64,000 nucleotides of DNA from Candidatus Hodarchaeum mangrovi (GTDB lineage Archaea > Asgardarchaeota > Heimdallarchaeia > Hodarchaeales > Hodarchaeaceae). The DNA is taken from assembly GCA_016839515.1 (NCBI GenBank), contig JAEOUE010000209.1, positions 1 to 64,000 of the forward strand, written 5' to 3'. The translations under genes were made by a program, and so were the position numbers. The notes beneath the pieces are model-generated. The model was not told the DNA's origin. It saw only the letters and a list, made by a program, of their open reading frames with translations, and made no database searches. Below, in pieces: positions 9,647-23,646 of this stretch (its first letter is position 1; the number at the start of each line of letters is the position of its first letter).

Positions 9647-10453
9647 CTAATTGAAATGAAATTCAATAGTTTTTTTCTCAGAATCAGCCCAAGACGCTCT
9701 TTTTGTTTCTACTAATAGTTTCATGATATTTTTAATGTCAGTTCCAGGTAAGGTCGACCAGCTTTGCTTCATTTGGATAATATCATATGCAGTGACCATT
9801 TCATACCCATTCTTGAATGCAAACTCAAATAAATCGTCACAGTACGTTATTAGAGTCTTCCAATATATTCGTAACCGTGTTTTTTGCTCATCCCACCATT
9901 TTGCTTTGTTTATTTCTACTAAATAATCTGAAATAAGGATCAATTGAGGAATAGATAATTTCTTCTTTGTAAGTGTATTATAAAAAGGATAAACTAAGCT
10001 AATCTCTTGTAAATCAATAATATGAAGATTCAGGATCCGTGCAAAATCTAAAATAAACTCACCCCAAGTGATTAACCACTGCTTTTTGTGTTCAATGTCA
10101 TCTGGAACCATCCAACGCCAAGGTTTATTTACCCATTGTGGTATAATCGGTTTAATTCTTGGGTCGATTTTACCAGGTTCCAATATAGGCTTTTGCAAAG
10201 TTTCGGTACTGATATCGTTCAATATAGACTCTTGAGAGGAAATTTCAGTATCAATTGTTTGATTAGATGGAGGAATTACTCTTTCTGATGAAAATGAGCT
10301 AAGATCTATTTTCTCTGTTTCAGGTTTTTCGGTTAAAGATTCATTTAATTGATTCATAACACTTTCTAAAACTTCAAAGGGTTCATTTTCTTTCTTTTTA
10401 ACATCTGATTTCTCGCGTTTTCGTTGCATCTCAGCCATATACATCCAGCTCAC
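9647..10453 (-). CDS. ESCRT-II subunit Vps25/EAP20 with long N-terminal extension
   Basis: W-x-x-FIL, PF-x-N, KAKW-W-D, IYWKT tandem winged-helix pattern of Vps25; lies in ESCRT operon. Confidence 0.8.
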   Translation of the reverse strand: MSWMYMAEMQRKREKSDVKKKENEPFEVLESVMNQLNESLTEKPETEKIDLSSFSSERVIPPSNQTIDTEISSQESILNDISTETLQKPILEPGKIDPRIKPIIPQWVNKPWRWMVPDDIEHKKQWLITWGEFILDFARILNLHIIDLQEISLVYPFYNTLTKKKLSIPQLILISDYLVEINKAKWWDEQKTRLRIYWKTLITYCDDLFEFAFKNGYEMVTAYDIIQMKQSWSTLPGTDIKNIMKLLVETKRASWADSEKKTIEFHFN

Positions 10454-10477: not shown

Positions 10478-11638
10478 TTATCCTCCGAATTTTTCTTTCC
10501 ACTTTTCATATTCAACAAGCTCTTCAGGAGAAACAGATGGTTTAATATGAACCATAGATTGTGTGAAATCATCAATATTAGGTTTTCTGGGCTGAATTGA
10601 ATGGTCTTTTAACGCCCCATCAGCATCAAGCTCACGAATAGGATGCATTAATGCTTCACGACAGAGAAGTGCAATGTCTGCAGCAGTATATCCAGCTGTA
10701 TAATCAGATAATTGACCAAAATCCACATTAGAATCTAAAGCAACACCACGAGTGTGAATCTTAAACATAACCTCCCGTGCAGACTGATTAGGCAATCCTA
10801 TATAAACTCTTCGTTCAAATCGACGCCTCATTGCTGCATCAATATCCCAAGGAGTATTTGTTGCTCCAATTGTAACAACTAATTCATCTCCAGTTCCAAA
10901 TCCTTCAACTGCCTGAAGTAGCTGTGTTTTTACCCGACGCATGGCATCATGCTCGGAAGCACCCCCTCTTCTTCCAGCTAAGGCATCAATTTCATCAAAA
11001 AATATAATCGAGGGAGCTTCTTCTTCTGCACGGTCATAAAGCTCTTCAACTAACTTTTCAGATTCACCTAACCACTTACTGATCAAATTTGCAGCACTAA
11101 CAGAAAAAAATGTAGAGTCCACCTCAGAGGCAACAGCTTTACACAGATAAGTTTTTCCACAGCCAGGAGGACCAAATAATAATATTCCTTTCCATGGTTT
11201 ACGTGCTCCTTTAAATAAGTCAGGGCGACTCATAGGAAGAATAACTGCCTCTCTCAAGGCTCTTTTAGCTTCTATCATTCCCGCAACGTCCTCCCACTTC
11301 ACATTTGGCTTTTCTCTGACAATTACATCCGATATTGCACCTGTAATTTCATCCTCAGGCCCTGAAGATGCTGAAGAAGAAGGTGTTCCTTTTCCTTTAC
11401 TTTTCCCTTCCGAGGGTTCAATTATTCCTCTAATTTCTTTAACTCGTATAATATAAGACATTGCACGTTCGTAATATAACTTCTTCATATTTGGATCTTC
11501 TGTAAAATCTCGTAATTTATGCAGCTGCTCTGCAGCAGCTATATAGTATCGAATCGATTGATGAGATTGCCCACTTTGATCTAATTTATAGGCGATATTT
11601 GCGTTTTTTTTGGCTGCCTCAAACAATGGACTAGACAT
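10478..11638 (-). CDS. vps4: Vps4 AAA+ ATPase with N-terminal MIT domain
   Basis: MIT helices; EKPNVKWEDVAG, GPPGCGKT, SKWLGESEK, DEID, RRRFERR, W-x-EKFG end. Confidence 0.96.
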   Translation of the reverse strand: MSSPLFEAAKKNANIAYKLDQSGQSHQSIRYYIAAAEQLHKLRDFTEDPNMKKLYYERAMSYIIRVKEIRGIIEPSEGKSKGKGTPSSSASSGPEDEITGAISDVIVREKPNVKWEDVAGMIEAKRALREAVILPMSRPDLFKGARKPWKGILLFGPPGCGKTYLCKAVASEVDSTFFSVSAANLISKWLGESEKLVEELYDRAEEEAPSIIFFDEIDALAGRRGGASEHDAMRRVKTQLLQAVEGFGTGDELVVTIGATNTPWDIDAAMRRRFERRVYIGLPNQSAREVMFKIHTRGVALDSNVDFGQLSDYTAGYTAADIALLCREALMHPIRELDADGALKDHSIQPRKPNIDDFTQSMVHIKPSVSPEELVEYEKWKEKFGG

Positions 11639-11680: not shown

Positions 11681-12292
11681 TTAATCTTTCTTAATTTTTT
11701 CTAGTTCTTTTTGTAGCTCTTGAGAACGAATATCTGGCGTTGGAAGCCCAAAATCTGCTGTAGCTACTTTTGAGGCACTAATTTCACCAATTATTTTTTC
11801 CACCATTTCATCTTCTTCAACATCAGAGGTCATCATTTCAAATCCCTCATCCATTGCATCAGTAGCAATATCAATTCTTTCGGTTTCTATCTCCATTTGT
11901 TGAAGAACTCCCTCTAATTGGGGGATTTTCAGCTGAGTATTCATTTGATGAAGTGCTCTTACTAATCCTCTCAAGTCTTTTCCAATTGCTTGAGTTGCTG
12001 CTGCTTGTTCGAGTTTAAATTTAATAGCTTTTACCCGGCTAGCCATCTGTTGGCATCCTCGGGCCATGGTACGATTTTTGGCTACATCTTTGGCTAATAA
12101 ACGGGCGGTAGTCATATCTCCATCTTCGACAGCTTTTTCTACTTCCTTCAACATCTGTCTTTCTTCTTTAATCAGCTTATTTCGTTGGCGTGTCATTCTT
12201 TTTTCAACCATTCGAAGACGAACTATCCACTTGCGTGTGTTTGTAGAACGATCTCCACCTCTAAGCCAGTTCCCGAATTTATCAAATACCAT
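11681..12292 (-). CDS. ESCRT-III, Vps2/Vps24/Vps46 class
   Basis: Basic N-terminal helices, ARLLAKDVAK, acidic C-half, terminal MIM1-like ELQKELEKIK. Confidence 0.92.
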   Translation of the reverse strand: MVFDKFGNWLRGGDRSTNTRKWIVRLRMVEKRMTRQRNKLIKEERQMLKEVEKAVEDGDMTTARLLAKDVAKNRTMARGCQQMASRVKAIKFKLEQAAATQAIGKDLRGLVRALHQMNTQLKIPQLEGVLQQMEIETERIDIATDAMDEGFEMMTSDVEEDEMVEKIIGEISASKVATADFGLPTPDIRSQELQKELEKIKKD

Positions 12293-12294
12293 TA

Positions 12295-12966
12295 TTAAGA
12301 CCTCAATCCTTCTTCAATTTGTTTTCGCATTTCTTCCAATTTTTTCTTATCAGCTTCTTTGGTTGCAGAACTTTGAGTGCCTGTAGAGGAACTAATTGGA
12401 GAAGACACTGCTGGTTCTTTTTTTTCCTTAATAAATGATTCAGAAGCAATTTCAGCTTCTAATTCAGCCATTTGTTGAGAAATACGGTCTTCAGCTTCTA
12501 CATCCATCCCAATTTCGGTAATAGAGGTATCTGTAAGTGCTTCATCCATATCTGAAACCATTTCGATTGAATCCTCTAATGCCATCATAACTTCCTCTGT
12601 TCGTTCTGGAGAAGCTGCAGCGATATTAGCATCTATGGATGTTTGAGCATCAGATAGGGTCTGAGTAAGGGTTACATTATCTGCTGAAATATCTAGTGTA
12701 TCTATCGTTCGTTGAAGATTTGAAATTTTATTATAGCTGCTTGTTACTTGTGTTAAATATAATTCACGTCTTTTTAACGCTTGTTGAGCACCTTGTTTAT
12801 TACCGCCCCTAAGTAGTGTTCGTGCAAGGTCATGTTGCTCATCTGCTTGGCGCTGATAATTTTTTATCTTAACTTCCATTTGATTAATCGTTCGTTTAAG
12901 CTTTGCCTTAGTTTCGGTTGAGCTTGAAGGTTTTTTTCCAGTTAAGAATCCTTTAATTCTTTTCAA
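12295..12966 (-). CDS. ESCRT-III, Snf7/Vps20/Vps32/Vps60 class
   Basis: GNKQGAQQALKRRELY Snf7 motif; basic-then-acidic helical architecture. Confidence 0.92.
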   Translation of the reverse strand: MKRIKGFLTGKKPSSSTETKAKLKRTINQMEVKIKNYQRQADEQHDLARTLLRGGNKQGAQQALKRRELYLTQVTSSYNKISNLQRTIDTLDISADNVTLTQTLSDAQTSIDANIAAASPERTEEVMMALEDSIEMVSDMDEALTDTSITEIGMDVEAEDRISQQMAELEAEIASESFIKEKKEPAVSSPISSSTGTQSSATKEADKKKLEEMRKQIEEGLRS

Positions 12967-13181: not shown

Positions 13182-13916
13182 TCAAATTGCAGGGAACGAA
13201 ATGGTTAATCCATCAAGGGAATCGGATTTAATTGCAATACGCTGCTTTATTAGAGAATCTAACGCATTATTAACCCTTTCTATAGTCCATGAGGTTTTTC
13301 TCAACAATTCAGATAATCCAATCTCACCATTATATTGAGCTGCGAGTTCTAATATCACTTGGTGATCATCAGATAGTTTTGGATCCAAAAATTCAACAAT
13401 TTTTATTCCAGCTAGTTTTTTAATTGCATGTATCATTCCATTTTCTTCAAGCATCTTCAGGGCAGAATTCATATCATTTATTGAGATTGTAATCCCTTTA
13501 CTTTCATCATTAAGTCGTGTAAGCAATTCAGAAACGCTTAATAATCCTCCAGTTTGAAGCCTTGTGTTTTTCCCAATTTCTATAATTCTTAGGCTTAAAT
13601 AATTCAGATAATCATCTTTTCCCTTTAATTTATCTATTATCCCTGGTTTTTTCCCTACCTCATAGATTCCAAGAGCTTGTGGAAGACCTAACTCCTCTCG
13701 AATTATCATTAGACGTTGAGCCAATTGTGGATTTTTCTTGAAATCTCCTTCATAGGTTTTTTCCAATTTTTGAAGCTCATCATGAAGCTGATGGACTTTT
13801 TGACTTAATTCTTCAAGGGATTTAAGCGCAAGTTTTGTACCTTTTCTTTTCAATTCAGCTTCTTGTGTGATTTTCTCTTCAATTCTTCGTAATCCCATTG
13901 GTTTAGCATTCCTCAT
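13182..13916 (-). CDS. ESCRT-II subunit Vps22/Vps36 (EAP30 domain)
   Basis: MGLRRI start, I-x-x-NP...LG, GGLLSVSEL, IS-x-ND, LSDDH-x-x-ILEL, W-x-x-ER motifs. Confidence 0.92.
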   Translation of the reverse strand: MRNAKPMGLRRIEEKITQEAELKRKGTKLALKSLEELSQKVHQLHDELQKLEKTYEGDFKKNPQLAQRLMIIREELGLPQALGIYEVGKKPGIIDKLKGKDDYLNYLSLRIIEIGKNTRLQTGGLLSVSELLTRLNDESKGITISINDMNSALKMLEENGMIHAIKKLAGIKIVEFLDPKLSDDHQVILELAAQYNGEIGLSELLRKTSWTIERVNNALDSLIKQRIAIKSDSLDGLTISFPAI

Positions 13917-14275
13917 TTTTTTTGATAGAGGTCACTCGTTAGAAATCTATGTTAAGATCTTTATATTTCTTTACAATTCGGTACAAAAAAAAGAGCCTTT
14001 ATAGGAAATTTTCCTGAATAGGGGTTATAATTGATCATTCTAATTTAATTAACTATCCTTTTCTCCTGATTAATACGAAGTACTTCATTTTTGTGTTTTT
14101 CGTTGAAATAATCAGTTTTTCTTTAAATTTACTACAAGATCATTTATTTTAAGTCTTTAATTTATATATAATCAACTTTTACAAAAAATTATAGGGATAA
14201 TACACAACATATTATGCTAAGATTTTCTTTCCTTATAAAGACAGTTTTCAGTTAAATGTTTAGGTTTGGATCAGA

Positions 14276-15622
14276 ATGGTACTTGATCTTAGTTTCAGCT
14301 CAGCTCCTATTTATTGTTCATTCTGTGGTACCATGATAATTGATTCAAACTCTAAAAAATGTTTGGAATGCGAAGCTTCCTTCTGTGCTAAATGTAGTGC
14401 TAATCTTCAGATAAATGGTTCTGCTCTTCAATGTCCATGTGGATCAAATAATATTGAAGATTATGGATCAAATAATAGCAATACAGCCCAATCTCTAGAA
14501 CACGTTTTTGAACTTAAACGTTCGCTTAAACAAATGGCATATAGACCAGTGGTGGCCCTTAAAAGAACAGGTCAGTTAGAATTACGCCTCCGATCTCTTC
14601 GAAAACAGTTCTTAATCCCACGTCATCATTTAGACAAGATTTTCTTAGAGACAAAAAAAATTGAAAATTTCATTTTGGAGGAGTTTTTCTCTTATTCAGA
14701 AAAATTACATCGTATATATCGTTCTGTTCTTGGATTCGATTCAGGATTCTCCGATCTTCGAAATATTTCAATGCAATTCACTCTTTTTGAAAAGCAAATT
14801 ACAAGTTTTGACCAAACCGTCCAAACCAAACTCGATCCTATTCAAGATTTAATTCACGAACTTGAAACTATATGTAATTCGTTTGAAGACATGGCAAAAA
14901 AATTATCGAGTTGTTTTGATATATTCTTCCTAGTTCCAGGAGAACTAGGGATTGGATACTTTTCAGATATTGATCTTAAGAAAAATAGAAGCCGTAAGAA
15001 AACAATTGACCTTGCTATTACTACTGATCGTATTGTGATGCTTCAAAATAAACGTTATAAAGTGTTTAGTAATAAAGCAATTATTTTTGATGAATTTCCT
15101 CCTGAAGATTTAATTGATGTGCAAAAATCGAATTCAGGATTCTTTAAACGAGATGAATTGTCAATAACGACAATCCAGCAGGATTACATACTTCGGGCTG
15201 AGTCTACTATCTTATTACGTATCTTTGATTCACTTCAAGTAAGTTATTATGGACGACCAAGTGAGTTATATATATATGAACCTTTTCGGGACTGGTCTTC
15301 AGAAAATTATCAAGAAAAAATATTAAATGCTTTAAATTTTCAGATAGATTCCAGTAGAGATGCAAAAATTCATTCTGAAACACCAAACCAACATGATAAA
15401 GATCCAGAATTCGTGATTGGTGTTTTGCAAGATAGACTTCGTGATCTAAGAATTCGAAAACTAGCAAATGAAAAAGCTTTGCAGGAGTTGAAAGAAGGAA
15501 GAAAAAAAGTCCATAGTCGCGAATATTTCGATCTCGTAAGACAATTTGAGCTGGAATTAGCAAAATTGAATGAGGAGATTACAGAATTACTAATCAGAAC
15601 AGGAAAAACAAATATTTTATAG
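14276..15622 (+). CDS. ESCRT-locus protein: 8-Cys FYVE-like Zn finger, helical region, PH/GLUE-like domain, C-terminal steadiness-box-like hairpin
   Basis: Cys 14/17/29/32/37/40/53/55; LVPGE...LAITTDRIV PH-like strands; aa 390-435 align by eye with the Vps23 SB hairpin. Confidence 0.6.
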   Translation: MVLDLSFSSAPIYCSFCGTMIIDSNSKKCLECEASFCAKCSANLQINGSALQCPCGSNNIEDYGSNNSNTAQSLEHVFELKRSLKQMAYRPVVALKRTGQLELRLRSLRKQFLIPRHHLDKIFLETKKIENFILEEFFSYSEKLHRIYRSVLGFDSGFSDLRNISMQFTLFEKQITSFDQTVQTKLDPIQDLIHELETICNSFEDMAKKLSSCFDIFFLVPGELGIGYFSDIDLKKNRSRKKTIDLAITTDRIVMLQNKRYKVFSNKAIIFDEFPPEDLIDVQKSNSGFFKRDELSITTIQQDYILRAESTILLRIFDSLQVSYYGRPSELYIYEPFRDWSSENYQEKILNALNFQIDSSRDAKIHSETPNQHDKDPEFVIGVLQDRLRDLRIRKLANEKALQELKEGRKKVHSREYFDLVRQFELELAKLNEEITELLIRTGKTNIL

Positions 15623-15625
15623 ACT

Positions 15626-16255
15626 TTATAGATTGGTTAATTCCCGTCTGAAATTTGATAACCAACGGGACGCCTGTAATTCAAGTTTTTTAAGCTCATC
15701 AGTCTTTAATAATTGACCTGGTTTTTGGCGATCCATCCAACCAATCCATTGACTTATATCTTGAGTTACCCAATGATCTTTTCCATATATTTTAAGATTA
15801 GTTAATATAGATGCTAATTCATCTAAATATGGTAATATTCGATCTACTGTTGCAATTGCCTCTAAATGTAGTAAATCTAGGAGTTCGATTGTATTGGCCA
15901 CAAAATCAGCAGCAATTGCTGGCAATCTTTTTATTTGGCTATAATCGATTTGATTCAACGGATTATCAGCATCACCTTCAGTTCTTCGTACTTTTTCTAA
16001 ACCGAAAGGAAATTTGGACTCCATTGCCTCTTTTTTGATGAAATCATCCAAATTGAAATGGTATTGGTCTAGTGCTGCCCGAGTTTCAACAATACTGGAT
16101 AAAAGGTTTTTGAATTGCTTATGATAGATATTTGGATCAATTTCACCTTTCTCAAATGTTCGTGAAAGAAGATCAAGTGTACCAATATCAGCATAAAGTC
16201 TAGCTTCTAGTTCCCATCGTTTCTTTAAATTCGGTGGAAAGGTCATTTGTGTCAT
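15626..16255 (-). CDS. ESCRT-I subunit Vps28
   Basis: LYA-x-I-x-TLD-x-L-x-R-x-F-x-x-G-x-I...Y hairpin; FV-x-x-x-IELLD-x-L four-helix CTD. Confidence 0.9.
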   Translation of the reverse strand: MTQMTFPPNLKKRWELEARLYADIGTLDLLSRTFEKGEIDPNIYHKQFKNLLSSIVETRAALDQYHFNLDDFIKKEAMESKFPFGLEKVRRTEGDADNPLNQIDYSQIKRLPAIAADFVANTIELLDLLHLEAIATVDRILPYLDELASILTNLKIYGKDHWVTQDISQWIGWMDRQKPGQLLKTDELKKLELQASRWLSNFRRELTNL

Positions 16256-16256
16256 C

Positions 16257-16991
16257 TTATCCTATATAATCAAGTTCTTTTCGGATTAAGTATAAGTCTT
16301 TGGAATATTTTTTATACAGACGGGAATATTCAAAAATTGATATTTCTCCAGCTGCATAACGATCCTCAAGAGAGGCTAATAATTCAGAAATTGCTATACG
16401 TTCTGATTCTAAATCGTCCTTGGTTGATCTTTGGGGTCGTTTTTCCTCGCCTAAACTTTCAGTTTGAACCATCTGTCGTGCGCGCAATCTCGCTAGCTCT
16501 TCTTCTTTTTCCTGTAGAGTTTGGTTTAAATTGATGAGTTCTTTGCGTAACGAATCGGTCTCTGCATTAACTGTAGGTTCGATATAACGAGGAGGTGACT
16601 CTGTGATTTTGATTACAGTATCCCGTACGGATCTAGCAGTTTCACCACGTGGAGCAGGTGGAACACGGGACATTAGATTTTTCAATGCTATTATAACTTG
16701 ATATAAATGAAATTCCGCCCGCCAATTTTCTAAGATTCGTAATTGAACAAATCCATCCTCATCGATATTTGGATGATCCATCCAACCCACTGCTGTGACA
16801 ACAGGAGGAACATTAGGAAAATATTCAGGTAGAAATATCTCAAAGGTGAACATATTTCGACCACGACTCGTTGTATATGTCAAAGTGCCTTGCCATTTGG
16901 CAAGAGAATCCTCAACAGGATTGAAACCTGATGCAGCAGTGTTGGAATAAACTAATTGTGCTTCACGCGCGAGTATAAAGTCTCTATCCAT
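16257..16991 (-). CDS. ESCRT-I subunit Vps23/TSG101 (UEV, coiled coil, steadiness box)
   Basis: E2 fold (FP-x-x-PP, HPNID) lacking the catalytic Cys; coiled coil; SB motif GEIS-x-x-EY. Confidence 0.92.
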   Translation of the reverse strand: MDRDFILAREAQLVYSNTAASGFNPVEDSLAKWQGTLTYTTSRGRNMFTFEIFLPEYFPNVPPVVTAVGWMDHPNIDEDGFVQLRILENWRAEFHLYQVIIALKNLMSRVPPAPRGETARSVRDTVIKITESPPRYIEPTVNAETDSLRKELINLNQTLQEKEEELARLRARQMVQTESLGEEKRPQRSTKDDLESERIAISELLASLEDRYAAGEISIFEYSRLYKKYSKDLYLIRKELDYIG

Positions 16992-17216: not shown

Positions 17217-18458
17217 TTAATTTTTCTTTTTTAAAGGATTTGCTAGGAAATTTAATAATTCTTGTCCTAAAAGTTCAAATGCATATTCGATATTTAACCC
17301 TGTCTTTGCACTTGTTGGGAGATAATAGATTTTAAATCCTCGATATTGCTTTGAAATTTGTGATAAACGACCAACAAAAATTCTTGCTTTTTCTTCAGAG
17401 ACACAATGAATTGTACCATCGCAAAGATCAGTTTTATTTCCAAGAATCACAAGTGGGACAGGACCACGTCCATTACTCTTCCAGAGCTCATTCATCCATA
17501 AAACAATATTCTGAAAACTATCAGGTCTGGTAACATCAAATACGGCAAGTGCTCCAATTGCTGTAGTATAATAAGCCATACGAACTCCATCAAACCGTGG
17601 TTGCCCTGCTAAATCCCAGATTACGTATTTAATTCTTTTCCCACCAGCATAAATCAAAGATGATTTTTTTACTGCCAAATCGGCCCCAATAGTCATTTGA
17701 TAATCATGTCGAAAGCCTTCTCCAAGATAATGTCTACGAATGGATGTTTTCCCAACAGCACCATCACCAATTAATATTATTTTTAGAGTGTGCTCTTCTT
17801 GGACAAAATTGGCTTTTGCAGACTCTATTAACTGCTCTAATGCTCTACTTAATTCCTTATTAATTGAAGGTATTTGCTCTGGATAAAGCTTCAAGACTTC
17901 AACAATCTGGAAAGCTAAAGGAGCTGCTTTATCACGTGGTACAAATTTAGAGGTTATGATTGAAATAATAAAATCTTGAATGATGAAGAAATGTATCGTT
18001 TGATTTTCAAGGGAAAGTTCCTCAAGCATTTTACCTAATTTGTGATGAACATAATTATTAATTGCATTTAAGATAAAACCAGTAGTTTCTTTATAATCGT
18101 TGCTAACCTCAGAGGGAAATTCAAATAAACATTTGCCATTCTGTTTGTAGCAGGAAATGAAATGAATTTCTTCTACTTTTTCTGGTTTTTCTAACCCAAA
18201 TTTGCGAAATTCCTCTATTTCTTTTTTACTAGCCATTTCCCCCTCTGAATAAACAGTTTGCAATAAATTTAAATAATCGCTACGTCCTGACAATGCTTCT
18301 TCCAAATCAACTTGAATTTTTAACTGAAACTCTTCCATTTCACTGGCAATTGATTCGTCTAAAACTCGGTCTTCTAGAGATTGTTTCTTTTTTCTTTGTA
18401 AAGTATTAAAGGACGAGAGTTTTTCTTTCATTGACCGAATTCTCCGGAGTTTTTTCAA
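17217..18458 (-). CDS. Rab-like small GTPase fused to N-terminal helical and longin-like domains
   Basis: G1 GDGAVGKT, G2 TIGAD, G3 WDLAGQ-x-RF, G4 NKTD, G5 TSAK; longin-like IHFISCY-x-x-NG-x-CLF. Confidence 0.85.
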   Translation of the reverse strand: MKKLRRIRSMKEKLSSFNTLQRKKKQSLEDRVLDESIASEMEEFQLKIQVDLEEALSGRSDYLNLLQTVYSEGEMASKKEIEEFRKFGLEKPEKVEEIHFISCYKQNGKCLFEFPSEVSNDYKETTGFILNAINNYVHHKLGKMLEELSLENQTIHFFIIQDFIISIITSKFVPRDKAAPLAFQIVEVLKLYPEQIPSINKELSRALEQLIESAKANFVQEEHTLKIILIGDGAVGKTSIRRHYLGEGFRHDYQMTIGADLAVKKSSLIYAGGKRIKYVIWDLAGQPRFDGVRMAYYTTAIGALAVFDVTRPDSFQNIVLWMNELWKSNGRGPVPLVILGNKTDLCDGTIHCVSEEKARIFVGRLSQISKQYRGFKIYYLPTSAKTGLNIEYAFELLGQELLNFLANPLKKKN

Positions 18459-18613: not shown

Positions 18614-19681
18614 TTATTTACCTTTTAAAAAAACTGACTCAATTTTTGTAAACAACCAAGGGATAATTAGAGCTAAAGTAAAAGCTAAAATGAAATAAGA
18701 GCAATAGTCTACTAAAGTACTCACCCAAGGTACTATACTTTGAGAATTTTCAAATAATCCAGAAACCTTATCCGTAAAAAAGTAAAGTAATACAACTGAA
18801 GTGAATCCTATAATTATTCGTATGAGTAAACTTACTGGTTGCCTTCCATAGATTTTAAAATTAATATATTGGTCTTCAAAAACCTTTCCAACTATAATTC
18901 CACCAAAGATACCAGGGTACACTCCTAAATCACTGTTGTTCCAAAGATCTGTAACGAGTGCACTTCCAAATAGAAAAGTAGTTAAATAAACAACTCCAAA
19001 TCCTAGAATAACTAAGATTATACTACTTAAAAAGCCCAAAAATATCTTTACTTTGTCTGATTTTTGTGTATAATAACTTCCATATCGCTTATCAATTTGA
19101 ACATACAATAAAGCTACCAGAATACCAACGACAACTCCAATAATTATATCACTAGGCCAATGTACACCTAAATAGCTTCTACTGAGAGGTATGGATATTA
19201 ATAATACTAATCCTAAAACTAGAATTGAAAAATTCCTATATTTCTGGAAAACAAATCCCCATAAGGTTCCTTGAGTTTGAGAATGTCCAGAAGGAAATGA
19301 ATATCCACTAGCACTCCACGTAGTTTCTCGTAATATTTGTGTAGTAACCTTAAATTTCTCATCATATATATAAGGACGAGGATTATGAAAAAATATCTTC
19401 AATATTGAGTTTAAACAAGCTGATAACGTAATTAGATAAATTATTTTTAACATATATTCCTTATTATAAGTATAATAGAGTAGTACCATTACTATAAGAA
19501 TTGGTAGTGTATTTCCAAATGTGGTTACAACTCCAAAGTAAAAATCTATAATATCATTAGAAAAGCTTTGAATAAATTCGAGTATTTGTTCACCAAATAA
19601 ACCAAGGATTAGATCAGACAATTTATCACAGCCTTTTATTGCTTTGACACTGAAAATTCTTTCAAAACGCTCAATTACCAT
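18614..19681 (-). CDS. PAP2-family membrane lipid phosphatase
   Basis: K-x6-RP, FPSGH, SR-x-YLGVHWPSD motifs; multiple TMs. Confidence 0.92.
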   Translation of the reverse strand: MVIERFERIFSVKAIKGCDKLSDLILGLFGEQILEFIQSFSNDIIDFYFGVVTTFGNTLPILIVMVLLYYTYNKEYMLKIIYLITLSACLNSILKIFFHNPRPYIYDEKFKVTTQILRETTWSASGYSFPSGHSQTQGTLWGFVFQKYRNFSILVLGLVLLISIPLSRSYLGVHWPSDIIIGVVVGILVALLYVQIDKRYGSYYTQKSDKVKIFLGFLSSIILVILGFGVVYLTTFLFGSALVTDLWNNSDLGVYPGIFGGIIVGKVFEDQYINFKIYGRQPVSLLIRIIIGFTSVVLLYFFTDKVSGLFENSQSIVPWVSTLVDYCSYFILAFTLALIIPWLFTKIESVFLKGK

Positions 19682-19907
19682 TTTTTTAAGCTTTTTCTTA
19701 GATAAAGTTGGGGTATCTTTTGGTTAATTTCCTAAAAGCTTGAACTTGATAATTTTAATTTTATCCTGTTTTTTTCAATTTCACACAGCTTTTAAATAAC
19801 ACAGTTCTTAACAAATGTAATATTGATCTTATATTTTTAACTCAAAAATTATTGCTATTAACCATTCAAATGCTGTCTAAGATTTATTTACAGGTGAAGA
19901 TTTCCCA

Positions 19908-20654
19908 ATGTCAGAATCTGAATCATTAGTTTGCCCTAATTGTAGTGAACGAAGTCCTGCAGGATATATTCTTTGTCCTTATTGTGGATTCGATTTGACT
20001 AAGATTGTTAAAGCCGCCCAACGAGTCCGAATAACTTTTAAAGAAAGCTTTTCTCGTATTTGGAGAGGATTTTTTGACCCTCGTCAAAGTAAAGGACTAT
20101 TCAATGAGGTTGGGGCTAATCCTGACAGAAGAGGGGCAATTTTAACTTTAATACTGGTATCAATGGCTTATGCGAGTCGAATTGGAGTTTATGCTATTAA
20201 AGTCTCAAGCACCACCTGGCATGATTTTCATTTCTGGTATGCTTTATTTTTTCCATTTGTTGTCTGGCCTGCCTTCTTTTTATTAGCTCTTTTTGCTTGG
20301 TTTATCCTTAGTACTGCTATATGGCTTCTGGCAAAAACTTTAGGGGGAAAAGCAGGATATCGGGAAACAATGAGCGTTGTTGGCTACTCAGTAAGTCCAC
20401 TTATTTCTGGATCACTCATCATCAGTCTTATTATTGTTCTTATCGGACCACCAATCAGTAGTATAACCTCAATAACTTCAGATCAATTCATACTTTTCGA
20501 ATTTTTATATCTCCCATTCATTGCTTTGGCTGCTTACCATTGTGGAAACGGATTAAGGGCATCCCATCTTCTAAGCGAGCCATATTCCTACTCAATTAGT
20601 GGTTTAATGGCATTATTATTTATTATCTTCTATCTACTCCCCTTGATACTGTAA
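19908..20654 (+). CDS. Zinc-ribbon + Yip1-domain membrane protein
   Basis: CPNC...CPYCG ribbon; ~5 TMs with LGGK-x-x-Y-x-x-x-x-SVVGYS-x-x-P Yip1 motif. Confidence 0.8.
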   Translation: MSESESLVCPNCSERSPAGYILCPYCGFDLTKIVKAAQRVRITFKESFSRIWRGFFDPRQSKGLFNEVGANPDRRGAILTLILVSMAYASRIGVYAIKVSSTTWHDFHFWYALFFPFVVWPAFFLLALFAWFILSTAIWLLAKTLGGKAGYRETMSVVGYSVSPLISGSLIISLIIVLIGPPISSITSITSDQFILFEFLYLPFIALAAYHCGNGLRASHLLSEPYSYSISGLMALLFIIFYLLPLIL

Positions 20655-20708
20655 AACATTCGTCGACTTAGAATTTGAAAGTGAATATTCAATCAATTGA
20701 TGAAATAA

Positions 20709-21704
20709 TTAATTCAGATATATTTTAAATTTTAATGGCATTGGGATTGAAGGATCAATCACCCGAAATATTTCTCCGTTATGAAATTCAGTTCCCATTA
20801 GTGCATCTGTTATAACCATATGTTGGGTTTCGTACAGGATTTTTATTTCAAGCCCAAGATTAAAAGAATATCTTAATTGTTCAATAAAATCAGAAAATCT
20901 TTGATCTTTAGAAGAATAAACTGGTATAATGTCTAAATGATAGGTATCGGAGCATACAAAACATGTTTTTCTCCTTTTGAGTGGTACAGATGTGAATTGA
21001 CCAGATTCTCCGTCCCAAAATAAGAAATTATTCATTGTTGGGATGCCATTGATAATTTTTAAGGCCTCTTGTGCCATTAATCCTCCAATGACTAACGAGA
21101 CACTGGATACAGATGGGATAAATTTTTTTTCTTCAACCACCTCCCGAATTTCCTTTCTTCCCTCACCAAAAGGTGTACAAGCTTTTTGTAGCTCCTGTTC
21201 TGGGATTAAAGATTGACATTCTAAACACGGGGTATGATAAGGAATGACAACTTGGATATTACCGAGGAATCCATACATTCCTCCAGATATCAAAGGAATT
21301 TTTGCTTTCACTGTGAACGCATTTAACCATCTACGAACTTTAAATGTATCTAATCCTTCAACTATAACATTAGATGTTGTTAAAAGATCATGAGGTACTT
21401 TTTCAATTGCATTTTTTATTACTTCAATCTCAATAGAAGGATTTATGGCTCTCAGTGCTTTAGCGGCAACATTTACCTTCGGTTTTCCAACATCATCCTC
21501 ATAATAGAAAAGTTGCCGATTAAGGTTACTTACTTCAATTGTGTCAAAATCTATCAAAATTAATTTTCCTACTCCAGCCATTGCAAGTGAAGCAGCAACA
21601 ACTGTTCCTAGAGCTCCAAGACCAACAATAGTAACTGTACTTTCTTTTATTCTTGTTTGGTCCCAATTTTCAATCAATAATTGACGTGCATAGCGATCAG
21701 TCAT
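20709..21704 (-). CDS. Ubiquitin-activating enzyme E1 (ThiF/MoeB fold, catalytic Cys, C-terminal UFD-like domain)
   Basis: RYARQ, GLGALG, D-x-IEVSNLNRQ, PCLEC, CTPFG catalytic Cys, CFVC; adjacent to ubiquitin. Confidence 0.9.
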   Translation of the reverse strand: MTDRYARQLLIENWDQTRIKESTVTIVGLGALGTVVAASLAMAGVGKLILIDFDTIEVSNLNRQLFYYEDDVGKPKVNVAAKALRAINPSIEIEVIKNAIEKVPHDLLTTSNVIVEGLDTFKVRRWLNAFTVKAKIPLISGGMYGFLGNIQVVIPYHTPCLECQSLIPEQELQKACTPFGEGRKEIREVVEEKKFIPSVSSVSLVIGGLMAQEALKIINGIPTMNNFLFWDGESGQFTSVPLKRRKTCFVCSDTYHLDIIPVYSSKDQRFSDFIEQLRYSFNLGLEIKILYETQHMVITDALMGTEFHNGEIFRVIDPSIPMPLKFKIYLN

Positions 21705-21748
21705 ATATTAGGCCCGCGGATGCACGTCTTTCTCTGAATCTTAAATTT

Positions 21749-21997
21749 CTACCTTTTCCCACCAGTGGTTCGTGTAATCATGTACAGCTTATCATGTTCT
21801 TGAATCCCAGCTGTCTTTAAAGTTTCGCTCTCATCAAGTTGTTTTCCTTGAAAGACTAGAATAACGGTTCCTGGAGGGATTCTATTTTCACTAGCAACTC
21901 TTCTTTTAATTGCTGCTATAGAATCAGTCATTTCACATTCAAGAGGTATTTCTCTACCGCCAATTGCCTGAACAATAGTGATTTGCATGTTCTTCAC
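21749..21997 (-). CDS. Eukaryote-type ubiquitin precursor (GG followed by KR)
   Basis: MQI-x-I, IPP, LVFQGKQLDE, TL-x-x-x-GI and R-x-x-GG match the ubiquitin fold. Confidence 0.93.
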   Translation of the reverse strand: MKNMQITIVQAIGGREIPLECEMTDSIAAIKRRVASENRIPPGTVILVFQGKQLDESETLKTAGIQEHDKLYMITRTTGGKR

Positions 21998-22125
21998 TCA
22001 AATATTCGCATTGTAAAAGATTTGTGAGTTACACTTCATCTCTGCCTTTTAAAATATATGGAATGGGGTACACAAATTATATACTAAATAACTCTATCGA
22101 ATTTTTTCTAATCGAAAGGATAGAT

Positions 22126-22914
22126 TTAATCATCTTCTGGTTCAATAAAACTGATTCCATCATTTGTAATTTCATAGCGTAGAGTTTTAGTCGTGTGATT
22201 AGTACCACGCATCTTAGTGATTCGAAGGATTCGCATCATTTCCCCACGAACAGAAAGCATATCAAGATGAAAAATAGAATCGGCAATATACTCTTCTCCA
22301 AACAAGGTATGATCAGAGGTACTTGATAATTCTGATATTGCTATTGTAGTAACGTTTAAGGCAGCAATATTTGCCAAAAATCCAGTTGCTAATTTTCTTA
22401 AAAAACCATAGTCATTTCCATAATCATAAAATCTAAATGCAGCTAGGGGATCTATTACTATTCGTTCAATTTTCTTTTCCTCTACTTTTTGGGATATTAA
22501 ATAAAAAATTTTATGTAAGAAAGTAGGTAATGATGTCTCATCATAGGGAACCCCTTCTACATCCAACATCAATTCAGTATCCTCACTATACGAAAGACTA
22601 TCAGGATCCCATAATTCCCATCCAGATGGCGTAAAGTCAAGCATGATTACTTTTTCAGGTTCTGCAAAATAATTGTGATCGAAAAAAGAAAAAGAACTTG
22701 CATCTCGTCGTATAGCCCATGGTGGTTCTTGCATTGCTACTAATAATCCATTTTCATTTCGACGAGCTCCATCAAAGAGAAAATGTAATCCAAAAATTGT
22801 CTTACCTGCTCCTGCAGGTCCTATTAGCAAATTAGTAGTTCCTTTGATAAAACCACCTTGAGTATAAGCATCAATAAATGGTATTCCTGTTGTTACGCGC
22901 ACACGTTCAAACAA
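22126..22914 (-). CDS. KaiC/RAD55-family RecA-fold ATPase
   Basis: TGIP-x-D, GPAGAGKT, RIVID, EYIAD, KMRGT-x-H motifs. Confidence 0.9.
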   Translation of the reverse strand: MFERVRVTTGIPFIDAYTQGGFIKGTTNLLIGPAGAGKTIFGLHFLFDGARRNENGLLVAMQEPPWAIRRDASSFSFFDHNYFAEPEKVIMLDFTPSGWELWDPDSLSYSEDTELMLDVEGVPYDETSLPTFLHKIFYLISQKVEEKKIERIVIDPLAAFRFYDYGNDYGFLRKLATGFLANIAALNVTTIAISELSSTSDHTLFGEEYIADSIFHLDMLSVRGEMMRILRITKMRGTNHTTKTLRYEITNDGISFIEPEDD

Positions 22915-23082
22915 TGAATCTCACTCTCAAAAATCAGAATATTTTATCTCTAAGTGAAACCTACGGTGAAATATTATTCATTACCCATTCAGAATATTAA
23001 TCTCATATAAAAGGTAATTTGTATGGTATTATAATCTTCTATCTATTTTTTTAATTATTATCATATACTATAGAAATCAAAA

Positions 23083-23646
23083 TCACTTTTGATAGTTAAT
23101 ATTCTGCTTACTAGCTTCTAGCTGTTCAATAAAGTACCGAAATGCTGATTCCAAATTTTCACCACTTCTTATTCCACCAGGATCAGCTGCTACTGTTCCA
23201 AAAATAAAGTAGTTTCTCTTTTGAAGTTTTTGAAGTAAAAAATGCCTTTTAAAAAAGTCTGGATATAGAGCATTTGGTAAATCTTGCTTATTAGCTATAA
23301 TAAGAATCGGTATATTTTCAGAAATAAGTTCCAACGCATCTTGTAGCCATTGTTCATCATATTTAAAATCACGACGGGAACTGTCAATAACAAAGACCAA
23401 TCCATCTGCGTTTTTGACAAATCTTTCATGATAACGCATATCTAGGAATTTCCTCTGACCCCCAACATCAATTAAACTGATAACTGATCCATCTAAAACA
23501 ACATGACTAATTCCGAAAGCAATTGTAGGCCTGATGTTGCTAGGTGGAGGATAACCATGCTCAAGATAAAATGCGATGGAAGATTTACCTACACCACTAG
23601 TTCCTAATAAAACAACTGAATAAATTGTTTTAGATGGTAATTCCAT
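23083..23646 (-). CDS. Arf/Arl-like small GTPase
   Basis: GTSGVGKS, PT-x-x-F, DVGGQ, VFVIDSS, ANKQD motifs. Confidence 0.88.
   Translation of the reverse strand: MELPSKTIYSVVLLGTSGVGKSSIAFYLEHGYPPPSNIRPTIAFGISHVVLDGSVISLIDVGGQRKFLDMRYHERFVKNADGLVFVIDSSRRDFKYDEQWLQDALELISENIPILIIANKQDLPNALYPDFFKRHFLLQKLQKRNYFIFGTVAADPGGIRSGENLESAFRYFIEQLEASKQNINYQK

Follow-up and report, generated by a model that had tools for sequence, protein, structure and literature searches.

The subject of this analysis is a gene in the ubiquitin-ESCRT cluster of Candidatus Hodarchaeum mangrovi (ESCRT, endosomal sorting complexes that are required for transport), which lies between the genes for Vps22 and Vps28 within a stretch of 64,000 nucleotides (contig JAEOUE010000209.1, positions 1 to 64,000, hereafter called the window). 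The encoded protein, in the following called the target protein, is most likely a Hodarchaeales member of the Asgard family Znr_CC_PH_SB, as judged from the published description of both the architecture and the neighbourhood of this family. It combines an N-terminal zinc finger, a helical bundle, a predicted PH fold and a C-terminal helical hairpin which, as judged from profile comparisons, is homologous to the steadiness box of Vps23. We consider it probable, with modest confidence, that the protein serves as the membrane- or cargo-side adaptor of archaeal ESCRT-I and that its hairpin takes the position of Vps37. The Hodarchaeales are the Asgard order that has been proposed as closest to the eukaryotes.

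The family carries the designation asCOG cog.011556. The passages of Makarova et al. (2024, mBio, PMC10936438) that deal with it describe an Asgard-specific family in which Zn ribbons and a coiled coil occur together with a steadiness box and a PH domain, and which is absent from eukaryotes and 'likely ancestral in Asgardarchaeota'. In the same passages the family is called 'a likely ESCRT-I component' with a PH domain 'expected to be membrane associated', and a 2023 preprint (10.1101/2023.07.25.550441) lists cog.011556 as a steadiness/Vps23-box asCOG. The target protein shows, in the same order, zinc ribbons, a helical region, a PH domain and a C-terminal steadiness box, an ESCRT neighbourhood and the restriction to Asgard archaea, and the inference drawn from these traits is the published one. 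It differs in the finger: the family in the paper possesses three Zn ribbons, whereas the eight cysteines of the target protein correspond to two zinc sites with C-x-C as the last pair. The sequence-only reading of the window had presented the idea of a third ESCRT-I subunit as if it were novel; because Makarova et al. (2024) had already named this architecture and printed the same idea, the finding is correct but not new. Full-text literature searching turned up no experimental study of the Znr_CC_PH_SB family.

The C-terminal hairpin was compared with the known ESCRT-I hairpins by profile methods. Residues 390–435, a stretch which begins with DLRIRK, had been aligned before with the steadiness box of the neighbouring Vps23 (residues 192–241), and this alignment could be confirmed. 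A comparison of the family hairpin alignment with the Vps23 hairpin alignment using hhalign resulted in P 0.0025 in the same register, compared with P 0.0064 for the accepted pair of Vps23 and Vps28 hairpins, and no similarity was found between the hairpin of the target protein and the N-terminus of Vps28 (P 0.7). In addition, hidden Markov models (HMMs) of the hairpins were scanned against all 8803 open reading frames (ORFs) of at least 50 amino acids from the organism's own genome, with the 8803 reversed ORFs as decoys. An HMM built from the C-termini of 43 family members identified Vps23 as the best non-self match (E 3.6e-4, covering its steadiness box), with the next ORF at 0.28. When the HMM was instead built from 18 distant members, again from their C-termini and with the Hodarchaeales rows left out, the target protein was found with E 3.1e-9 and Vps23 with 1.1e-5; the next ORF reached 0.15, Vps28 0.19 and the best decoy 0.031. 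In the reverse direction the Vps23-hairpin HMM matched 3 of the 43 family members at E<0.001 (best 6e-8), and BLASTP aligned 50 residues of the window's Vps23 with the C-terminus of one distant member at 34% identity (E 3e-5 among 26 sequences). An HMM of the Vps23 steadiness box at the genus level missed the target protein in its own genome (best non-self match 0.29), and the isolated hairpin returned nothing relevant from Pfam. Taken together, these comparisons indicate homology between the hairpin at the C-terminus and the steadiness box of Vps23.

The fold of the whole protein was analyzed with an AlphaFold2 (AF2) model, calculated from a 34-row alignment, which reached a mean predicted local distance difference test score (pLDDT) of 80.1 and a predicted template modelling score of 0.60. 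The model shows a Zn-finger region (residues 13–63) followed by the helical bundle, a PH-like module, a low-confidence linker (residues 358–376) and the helical hairpin. The model gives the middle domain the topology of a PH domain, with seven strands (residues 225–235, 242–249, 253–261, 265–274, 279–287, 292–299 and 303–307) and a capping helix (310–323). The sequence features from which a PH domain of the GLUE/GRAM type had been proposed are present, with LVPGE beginning at residue 219 and with the stretches KKNRSRKK and ITTDRIV. A Foldseek search of the full-length model against the PDB yielded 80 matches with E<=0.001, of which the best 50 were inspected; the listed matches are PH-containing chains with E values from 2.8e-6 to about 2e-4 and a probability of 1.0. 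Beyond tandems of DH and PH domains, which are considered below, these include GRK2, the Sec7-PH unit of Brag2, dynamin and the PH-like (GRAM-type) domain of Lam6 at about 1e-4, and a Vps36 GLUE chain was absent among the best 50 of the 80. A comparison of residues 216–356 with a protein atlas gave a best value of 0.87, with bPH_3, GRAM and DUF956 at 0.85; these matches were used as leads only and not as evidence. Hence the AF2 model and the Foldseek matches support the PH part of the proposal, but not an identity as GLUE domain, for which the Pfam profile PF11605 had no match.

Linkage to ESCRT genes is conserved within the genus and beyond it. The locus in the window is a Hodarchaeales-type ubiquitin-ESCRT cluster, and ORF and Pfam analyses verified the placement of the gene as described in the sequence-only reading, divergent to Vps22 and convergent to Vps28 (Table 1). 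The gene is present in a single copy in its own genome according to a profile search. Searches of 90% clusters revealed 52 and 59 homologues at E<=0.001, and 10 proteins passed this threshold in an all-against-all comparison of 1.84 billion representatives. When 400 Asgard genomes were searched with a profile, 67 gave matches, among them 20 of the 21 further genomes of this genus; the weakest matches include some that span the Zn region only and are possibly unrelated. Conservation in the family is highest in the helical bundle and the PH domain rather than in the finger. At the 20 loci from the same genus, Vps28 was adjacent in every case, Vps23 in 19 and Vps22 in 17 (tblastn), and the missing copies of Vps23 and Vps22 fall at contig ends or outside the 1.5-kb flanks. 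For more distant relatives 20 loci from seven other Asgard families were sampled. ESCRT genes were located within 8 kb of the homologue in 15 of these, with Snf7 usually directly abutting; in one locus (L036) the Snf7 neighbour was confirmed by Pfam.

From this architecture, homology and linkage we infer the following mode of action. The C-terminal Vps23-type hairpin (residues 378–442) would dock on the hairpins of Vps23 and Vps28 and would thereby occupy the position that belongs to Vps37 in eukaryotic ESCRT-I headpieces. The flexible linker of about 20 residues would tether a rigid module that comprises the long basic helical bundle together with the PH domain, and this module would bind the membrane. 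The N-terminal finger with its two zinc sites may bind a further partner, for which ubiquitin, the C-terminal domain of Vps28 or a lipid head group are candidates.

Several results weigh against this adaptor role. For the predicted docking of the hairpin on Vps23 and Vps28 no confident model was obtained; a complex prediction with Vps23 residues 140–244, Vps28 residues 1–125 and residues 340–448 of the target protein, each with its own alignment, scored 0.00 twice, with controls not run, and counts neither for nor against the docking. The hairpin is preceded by the linker 358–376 and lacks a stalk helix of the Vps37 type that could join the coiled coil of Vps23. The Pfam families Mod_r, Vps23_core and GLUE gave no match on the target protein. 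With the 43-member HMM the best reversed decoy reached 0.0039, so that Vps23 at 3.6e-4 is separated from it only about tenfold. An HMM restricted to Hodarchaeales hairpins missed Vps23 among the 8803 ORFs (best non-self match 0.11), and therefore the homology of the hairpin to Vps23 is transitive via the distant members and the hairpin of this clade has diverged. The homologue is not located beside ESCRT genes in 5 of the 20 distant loci. Only 18 of the 43 members have a net charge of +2 or more in the loop between strands beta1 and beta2 of the PH domain, and therefore lipid binding via this loop is not certain for the family as a whole. Finally, a third subunit is not required for a headpiece of three hairpins, because Odinarchaeal ESCRT-I is described as a Vps23 dimer with one Vps28 in the section of Hatano et al. 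(2022, PMC9192718) on this complex.

Table 1. Features of the target gene and of its surroundings in the window (aa, residues of the encoded protein).
Feature	Position	Strand	Description and basis
Target gene	14276..15622	+	ORF, 448 aa plus stop; Asgard family of Zn finger, helical bundle, PH fold and steadiness box
8-Cys zinc finger	14315..14440	+	aa 14–55; C4C4, Cx2C-x11-Cx2C-x4-Cx2C-x12-CxC; Cys conserved in orthologues
Long antiparallel helical bundle	14471..14911	+	aa 66–212; strongly conserved basic motifs, invariant P91; AF2
PH-fold domain (predicted)	14930..15244	+	aa 219–323; seven strands and C-terminal helix, basic beta1-beta2 loop, conserved P-G-E and I-T-T-D-R motifs
Conserved post-PH segment	15245..15343	+	aa 324–356; invariant R-D-W-S-S-E-x-Y-Q-E, helix 343–352; AF2 and alignment
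Variable linker	15344..15406	+	aa 357–377; pLDDT < 50 for residues 358–376; alignment columns variable
C-terminal helical hairpin	15407..15601	+	aa 378–442; helices 378–407 and 414–442; Vps23-type steadiness-box homologue by profile comparison
Conserved C-terminal tail G-K-T-N-I/L-L	15602..15619	+	no known motif assigned
Divergent intergenic region, target/Vps22	13917..14275	.	359 nt, by coordinates; presumed to carry both promoters
Vps22 (EAP30), divergent neighbour	13182..13916	-	Pfam EAP30 E 4.5e-22; 244 aa, EAP30 over residues 8–226
Vps28, convergent neighbour	15626..16255	-	Pfam VPS28 E 8.6e-12; 3-nt gap 15623-15625 to target gene
UEV-Vps23	16257..16991	-	Pfam UQ_con and UEV; C-terminal steadiness box aa 192–241
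Ras/Rab-like GTPase	17217..18458	-	Pfam Ras E 2.1e-35; 215-aa N-terminal extension
Vps25 (Pfam ESCRT-II family)	9647..10453	-	Pfam E 3.6e-13
Vps4	10478..11638	-	ORF translation; served as tblastn query
Two ESCRT-III genes	11681..12966	-	ORF translations; served as tblastn queries
PAP2 lipid phosphatase	18614-19681		
Zn-ribbon-Yip1 protein	19908-20654		
E1-like ThiF protein	20709-21704		
Ubiquitin	21749-21997		
KaiC-like ATPase	22126-22914		
Arf-like GTPase	23083-23646		

Eukaryotic Vps37 (Mod_r, PF07200) is a point of reference for the proposed position of the hairpin. The target protein resembles it in its C-terminal hairpin related to the Vps23 steadiness box, in the vicinity of its gene to those for Vps23 and Vps28, and in that what lies outside the hairpin is a candidate for membrane binding; Vps37 itself carries a basic N-terminal membrane-binding helix. 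It differs in the missing Mod_r match and stalk helix, and it has a PH domain as well as a Zn finger, neither of which occurs in Vps37. Mod_r produced eight weak matches in the genome (E<=10), none of them on the target protein and none over the cut-off, and was absent among the best 25 of 82 Pfam families for 34 members; Vps23_core (PF09454) weakly touches Vps28 and Vps23 and misses the target protein. An ORF with matches to both Mod_r and Vps23_core (G000:C296, 566-1378) encodes a membrane-anchored acidic coiled-coil protein and was rejected as a steadiness-box protein. The free-standing steadiness-box proteins of Loki- and Thorarchaeota, as presented in parts of Hatano et al. (PMC9192718), share with the target protein an ESCRT neighbourhood and a steadiness-box hairpin that belongs neither to Vps23 nor to Vps28. 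They consist of the hairpin alone, whereas the target protein adds a Zn finger, a helical bundle and a PH domain.

The main alternative, which we regard as unlikely, is a role in ESCRT-II. The target protein would then be a functional analogue of Vps36 and not of Vps37, providing in trans the PH and zinc-finger functions of the GLUE domain in eukaryotic Vps36. Either the N-terminal helical region of Vps22 would receive its hairpin, or the protein would bridge Vps28 and Vps22, and it would thus be part of ESCRT-II or linked to it. Like Vps36, in which a GLUE domain is combined with NZF fingers, it joins a PH fold and a zinc finger in one ESCRT-linked protein. The target gene and Vps22 have a presumed divergent promoter region in common, and most other lineages place the homologue in a Snf7-Vps4-Vps25-Vps22 block, right beside Snf7. 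The sequence-only reading had stated that the EAP30 protein of the window is devoid of a GLUE domain, which holds true, as its EAP30 domain occupies most of its length (Table 1). Moreover, the GLUE profile had no match in the complete set of proteins at E<=10 (the genome is 91% complete), a full Vps36 was not found in the genome, and in a second EAP30-like protein the N-terminus is a coiled coil, not a PH domain. Because the genome is without any GLUE or Vps36 equivalent, the target protein may supply this function. The relevant sections of Hatano et al. (PMC9192718) report Asgard archaea without Vps37 and Vps36, as well as yeast two-hybrid assays in which free-standing steadiness-box proteins bind Vps28 and Vps22, the interaction with Vps22 being that of a Lokiarchaeal protein; a steadiness-box-like part of Asgard Vps22 is mentioned in a passage of Makarova et al. 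(PMC10936438). On the other hand, among the forward sequences the hairpin HMMs match Vps23 and not Vps22, and winged-helix domains, as present in Vps36, are missing from the AF2 model. The target protein also differs from Vps36 in its steadiness box and in the N-terminal position of its fingers, which are not inserted into the PH domain, and neither the GLUE profile nor the inspected Foldseek matches point to a GLUE domain.

A coupling to small GTPases appears rather improbable. As an effector or adaptor, the target protein would read a GTP-bound Ras/Arf-like GTPase with its PH and helical module, and the hairpin would then recruit ESCRT-I in a step resembling ESCRT-0. A Ras-like GTPase gene is located 1.6 kb downstream of the target gene. 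In three loci from one other family (L031, L032 and L048), where ESCRT genes were not detected, genes for Arf-like and Ras-like GTPases lie on either side of the homologue at a distance of 144–292 nt, and at a further locus (L041) a Roadblock-Ras gene is located 1.3 kb upstream, in addition to an upstream winged-helix gene. Hence three of eight Asgard families show a GTPase gene within about 1.6 kb, for which the chance expectation, estimated from 47 Ras-family genes per 4.0 Mb, is a few per cent per locus. However, Asgard genomes are rich in GTPases (47 in this genome), the three loci from one family are not independent, 15 of the 20 distant loci have ESCRT neighbours and no GTPase was detected there, and binding between the target protein and a GTPase is a prediction only. 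An extended version of this idea, which seems to us similarly improbable, is a primordial GTPase-coupled ESCRT recruiter, in which PH domain and bundle would recognise a membrane-bound Ras/Arf-like GTPase, perhaps together with an archaeal phospholipid, and the hairpin would nucleate ESCRT-I. If this were true, the protein would be the archaeal counterpart of the logic of ESCRT-0 and Rab effectors, older than the eukaryotes, and the homologues between GTPase genes outside ESCRT clusters would be a trace of this coupling.

The N-terminal finger leads to a still less probable alternative. Its cysteines are arranged in the translation as C14-x2-C17-x11-C29-x2-C32-x4-C37-x2-C40-x12-C53-x-C55, exactly with the spacing described in the sequence-only reading, and an RRHHCR-type motif is absent, as stated there. 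This eight-Cys cross-brace spacing equals that of FYVE and B-box fingers, and the finger shares its eight cysteines and the central Cx2C-x4-Cx2C with the FYVE domain (PF01363) of the ESCRT-0 proteins Vps27/Hrs. A feature of FYVE domains is a basic motif ahead of the third Cys which binds phosphatidylinositol 3-phosphate; in the target protein, unlike in Vps27/Hrs, a basic stretch before C29 is absent, the residues there being S-K-K (S-K-K-C-L-E-C), and the family consensus has a single K. FYVE matches remained below threshold in 17 of 34 members (E<=1; best E 0.0032, none over the Pfam cut-off), the full-length target protein had no FYVE match at E<=1, and its isolated finger reached 13.8 bits with the Pfam model FYVE_2, for which the cut-off is 27.2. 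Further matches below threshold were found for an ANCHR-like B-box (15 of 34 members), C1_2 (13 of 34), IBR and RING, and the B-box, RING and C1 models score about equal to FYVE or better. The finger thus has a spacing of the FYVE/B-box type, but the matches to FYVE, B-box, RING and C1, all below threshold, do not support a FYVE identity. Searches of PDB sequences with the family profile gave as best matches MID1 B-box1 (E 0.008), RNF31 and the BRE1 RING, followed by the FYVE domains of WDFY3, EEA1 and Vps27 at E 0.39–7; with the single sequence only Zn-finger matches were obtained (E>=0.64), and in both searches the PH domain and the hairpin were unmatched. Distant members have 12–14 Cys, equivalent to one extra ribbon, and a length of 480–555 residues, in comparison with the 8 Cys of the Hodarchaeales form. 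Accordingly, the former suggestion that one protein supplies the Vps37 hairpin together with targeting functions of the ESCRT-0 or GLUE kind is supported in its architecture, but not in the three memberships: by profile searches FYVE, GLUE and Vps37 are labels for resemblances. Among the refuting outcomes named in the sequence-only reading, none of those tested was observed.

If the finger were an E3 of the RING/B-box kind or a ubiquitin binder, the target protein could be a component of the ubiquitin system, with the hairpin bringing it to the ubiquitinated steadiness box of Vps23. The B-box and RING matches described above fit such a role, the genes for ubiquitin and an E1-like ThiF protein are located 5–6 kb from the target gene, and a section of a 2023 preprint reports that an Asgard RING E3 ubiquitinates the Vps23 steadiness box. 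We consider this role very unlikely, as all finger matches lie under the curated cut-offs with FYVE and C1 scoring equally, the helical bundle and the PH domain are better conserved than the finger, and some members (P0060 and P0067, possibly partial gene calls) start after the finger.

That the target protein acts on the neighbouring GTPase as a guanine-nucleotide exchange factor of the DH-PH kind is close to excluded: the best Foldseek matches of the full-length model are the DH-PH tandems of Dbs, Trio, FARP2, collybistin and Vav1 (E 2.8e-6 to 1e-4 across 300–370 aligned columns), but with template modelling (TM) scores of only 0.2–0.35 and a root mean square deviation of about 20 A, and RhoGEF was absent both among the best 25 of the 82 Pfam families of the 34 members and for the target protein at E<=1. 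The bundle comprises four helices in the full-length model (residues 66–88, 90–108, 117–151 and 161–212), and the helical domain modelled alone (pLDDT 90.8) shows three long helices, unlike the DH architecture. In a Foldseek search of this isolated domain against the PDB, none of the 829 matches listed at E<=10 reached E<=0.001; the best were de novo helical bundles, Smac and IncA, and a DH domain, that of Tiam1, appeared only at rank 48 (E 0.54, TMq 0.26). The model of the isolated domain and its PDB search thus speak clearly against a DH-PH RhoGEF, and the tandem matches are therefore due to a PH domain that follows generic long helices. The start of the bundle (residues 66–125, window 14471-14650) is the best-conserved stretch of the protein and contains many invariant basic residues; P91 is invariant in the whole family, and the conservation of residues 66–125 exceeds what a generic coiled coil needs.

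In the segment behind the PH domain W340 is almost invariant in a wide family alignment. In the C-terminal tail G443, K444 and N446 are invariant across 28 Hodarchaeales-type sequences, and G-K-T-N-(I/L)-L is present as well in two more distant members (P0053 and P0060). In two other Asgard families, lipid-related genes occur next to the homologue. It is flanked by genes for a calcineurin-like metallophosphoesterase and a UbiA prenyltransferase at three loci (L036 7363-9068, L044 and L049), and at a fourth (L037 11005-12806) it is located beside genes for a metallophosphoesterase and a myo-inositol-1-phosphate synthase. These neighbours may point to a connection with the metabolism of lipid head groups.

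The ESCRT cluster of the window runs on into a block of trafficking and ubiquitin genes (18614-23646), and according to the section of the preprint 10.1101/2023.07.25.550441 on the Hodarchaeial cluster this also holds Yip1 and Rab-like genes. The N-terminal extension of the Ras/Rab-like GTPase (window 17814-18458) had no Pfam match at E<=0.01. Ras-family matches number 47 at E<=1e-5 in the 4.0-Mb genome, and several of them are paired or clustered, for example on contigs C34, C208, C138 and C70. A second ESCRT-II-like locus with three genes is located outside the window on contig C138 at about 23.1–25.4 kb (L052 985-3248). It encodes a 333-aa EAP30-like protein with a coiled-coil N-terminus (E 7.5e-9) and an SPFH/Band 7 protein, the C-terminal G-x-L-S-x-E-x-Y hairpin of which looks steadiness-box- or SHOCT-like by eye; the third product, of 118 aa, combines a PCI-like region with a RING/B-box-like zinc finger.

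As the central idea had been derived from sequence analysis and printed in 2024, the contribution made here is corroboration; the present work adds genome-wide statistics for the relation of the hairpin to Vps23, a check of the PH fold, linkage counts across Asgard families and the exclusion of the DH-PH lead. For reconstitution the locus offers a compact and complete 13-kb Hodarchaeales set comprising Vps25, Vps4, two ESCRT-III proteins, Vps22, the target protein, Vps28, UEV-Vps23, the GTPase, Yip1, E1 and ubiquitin. The question addressed is how ESCRT-I of Asgard archaea is completed and recruited to membranes. Asgard archaea are without Vps37, Vps36/GLUE and ESCRT-0, and the Znr_CC_PH_SB family is the one candidate in which a headpiece hairpin would be combined with domains for membrane and partner binding in a single protein.

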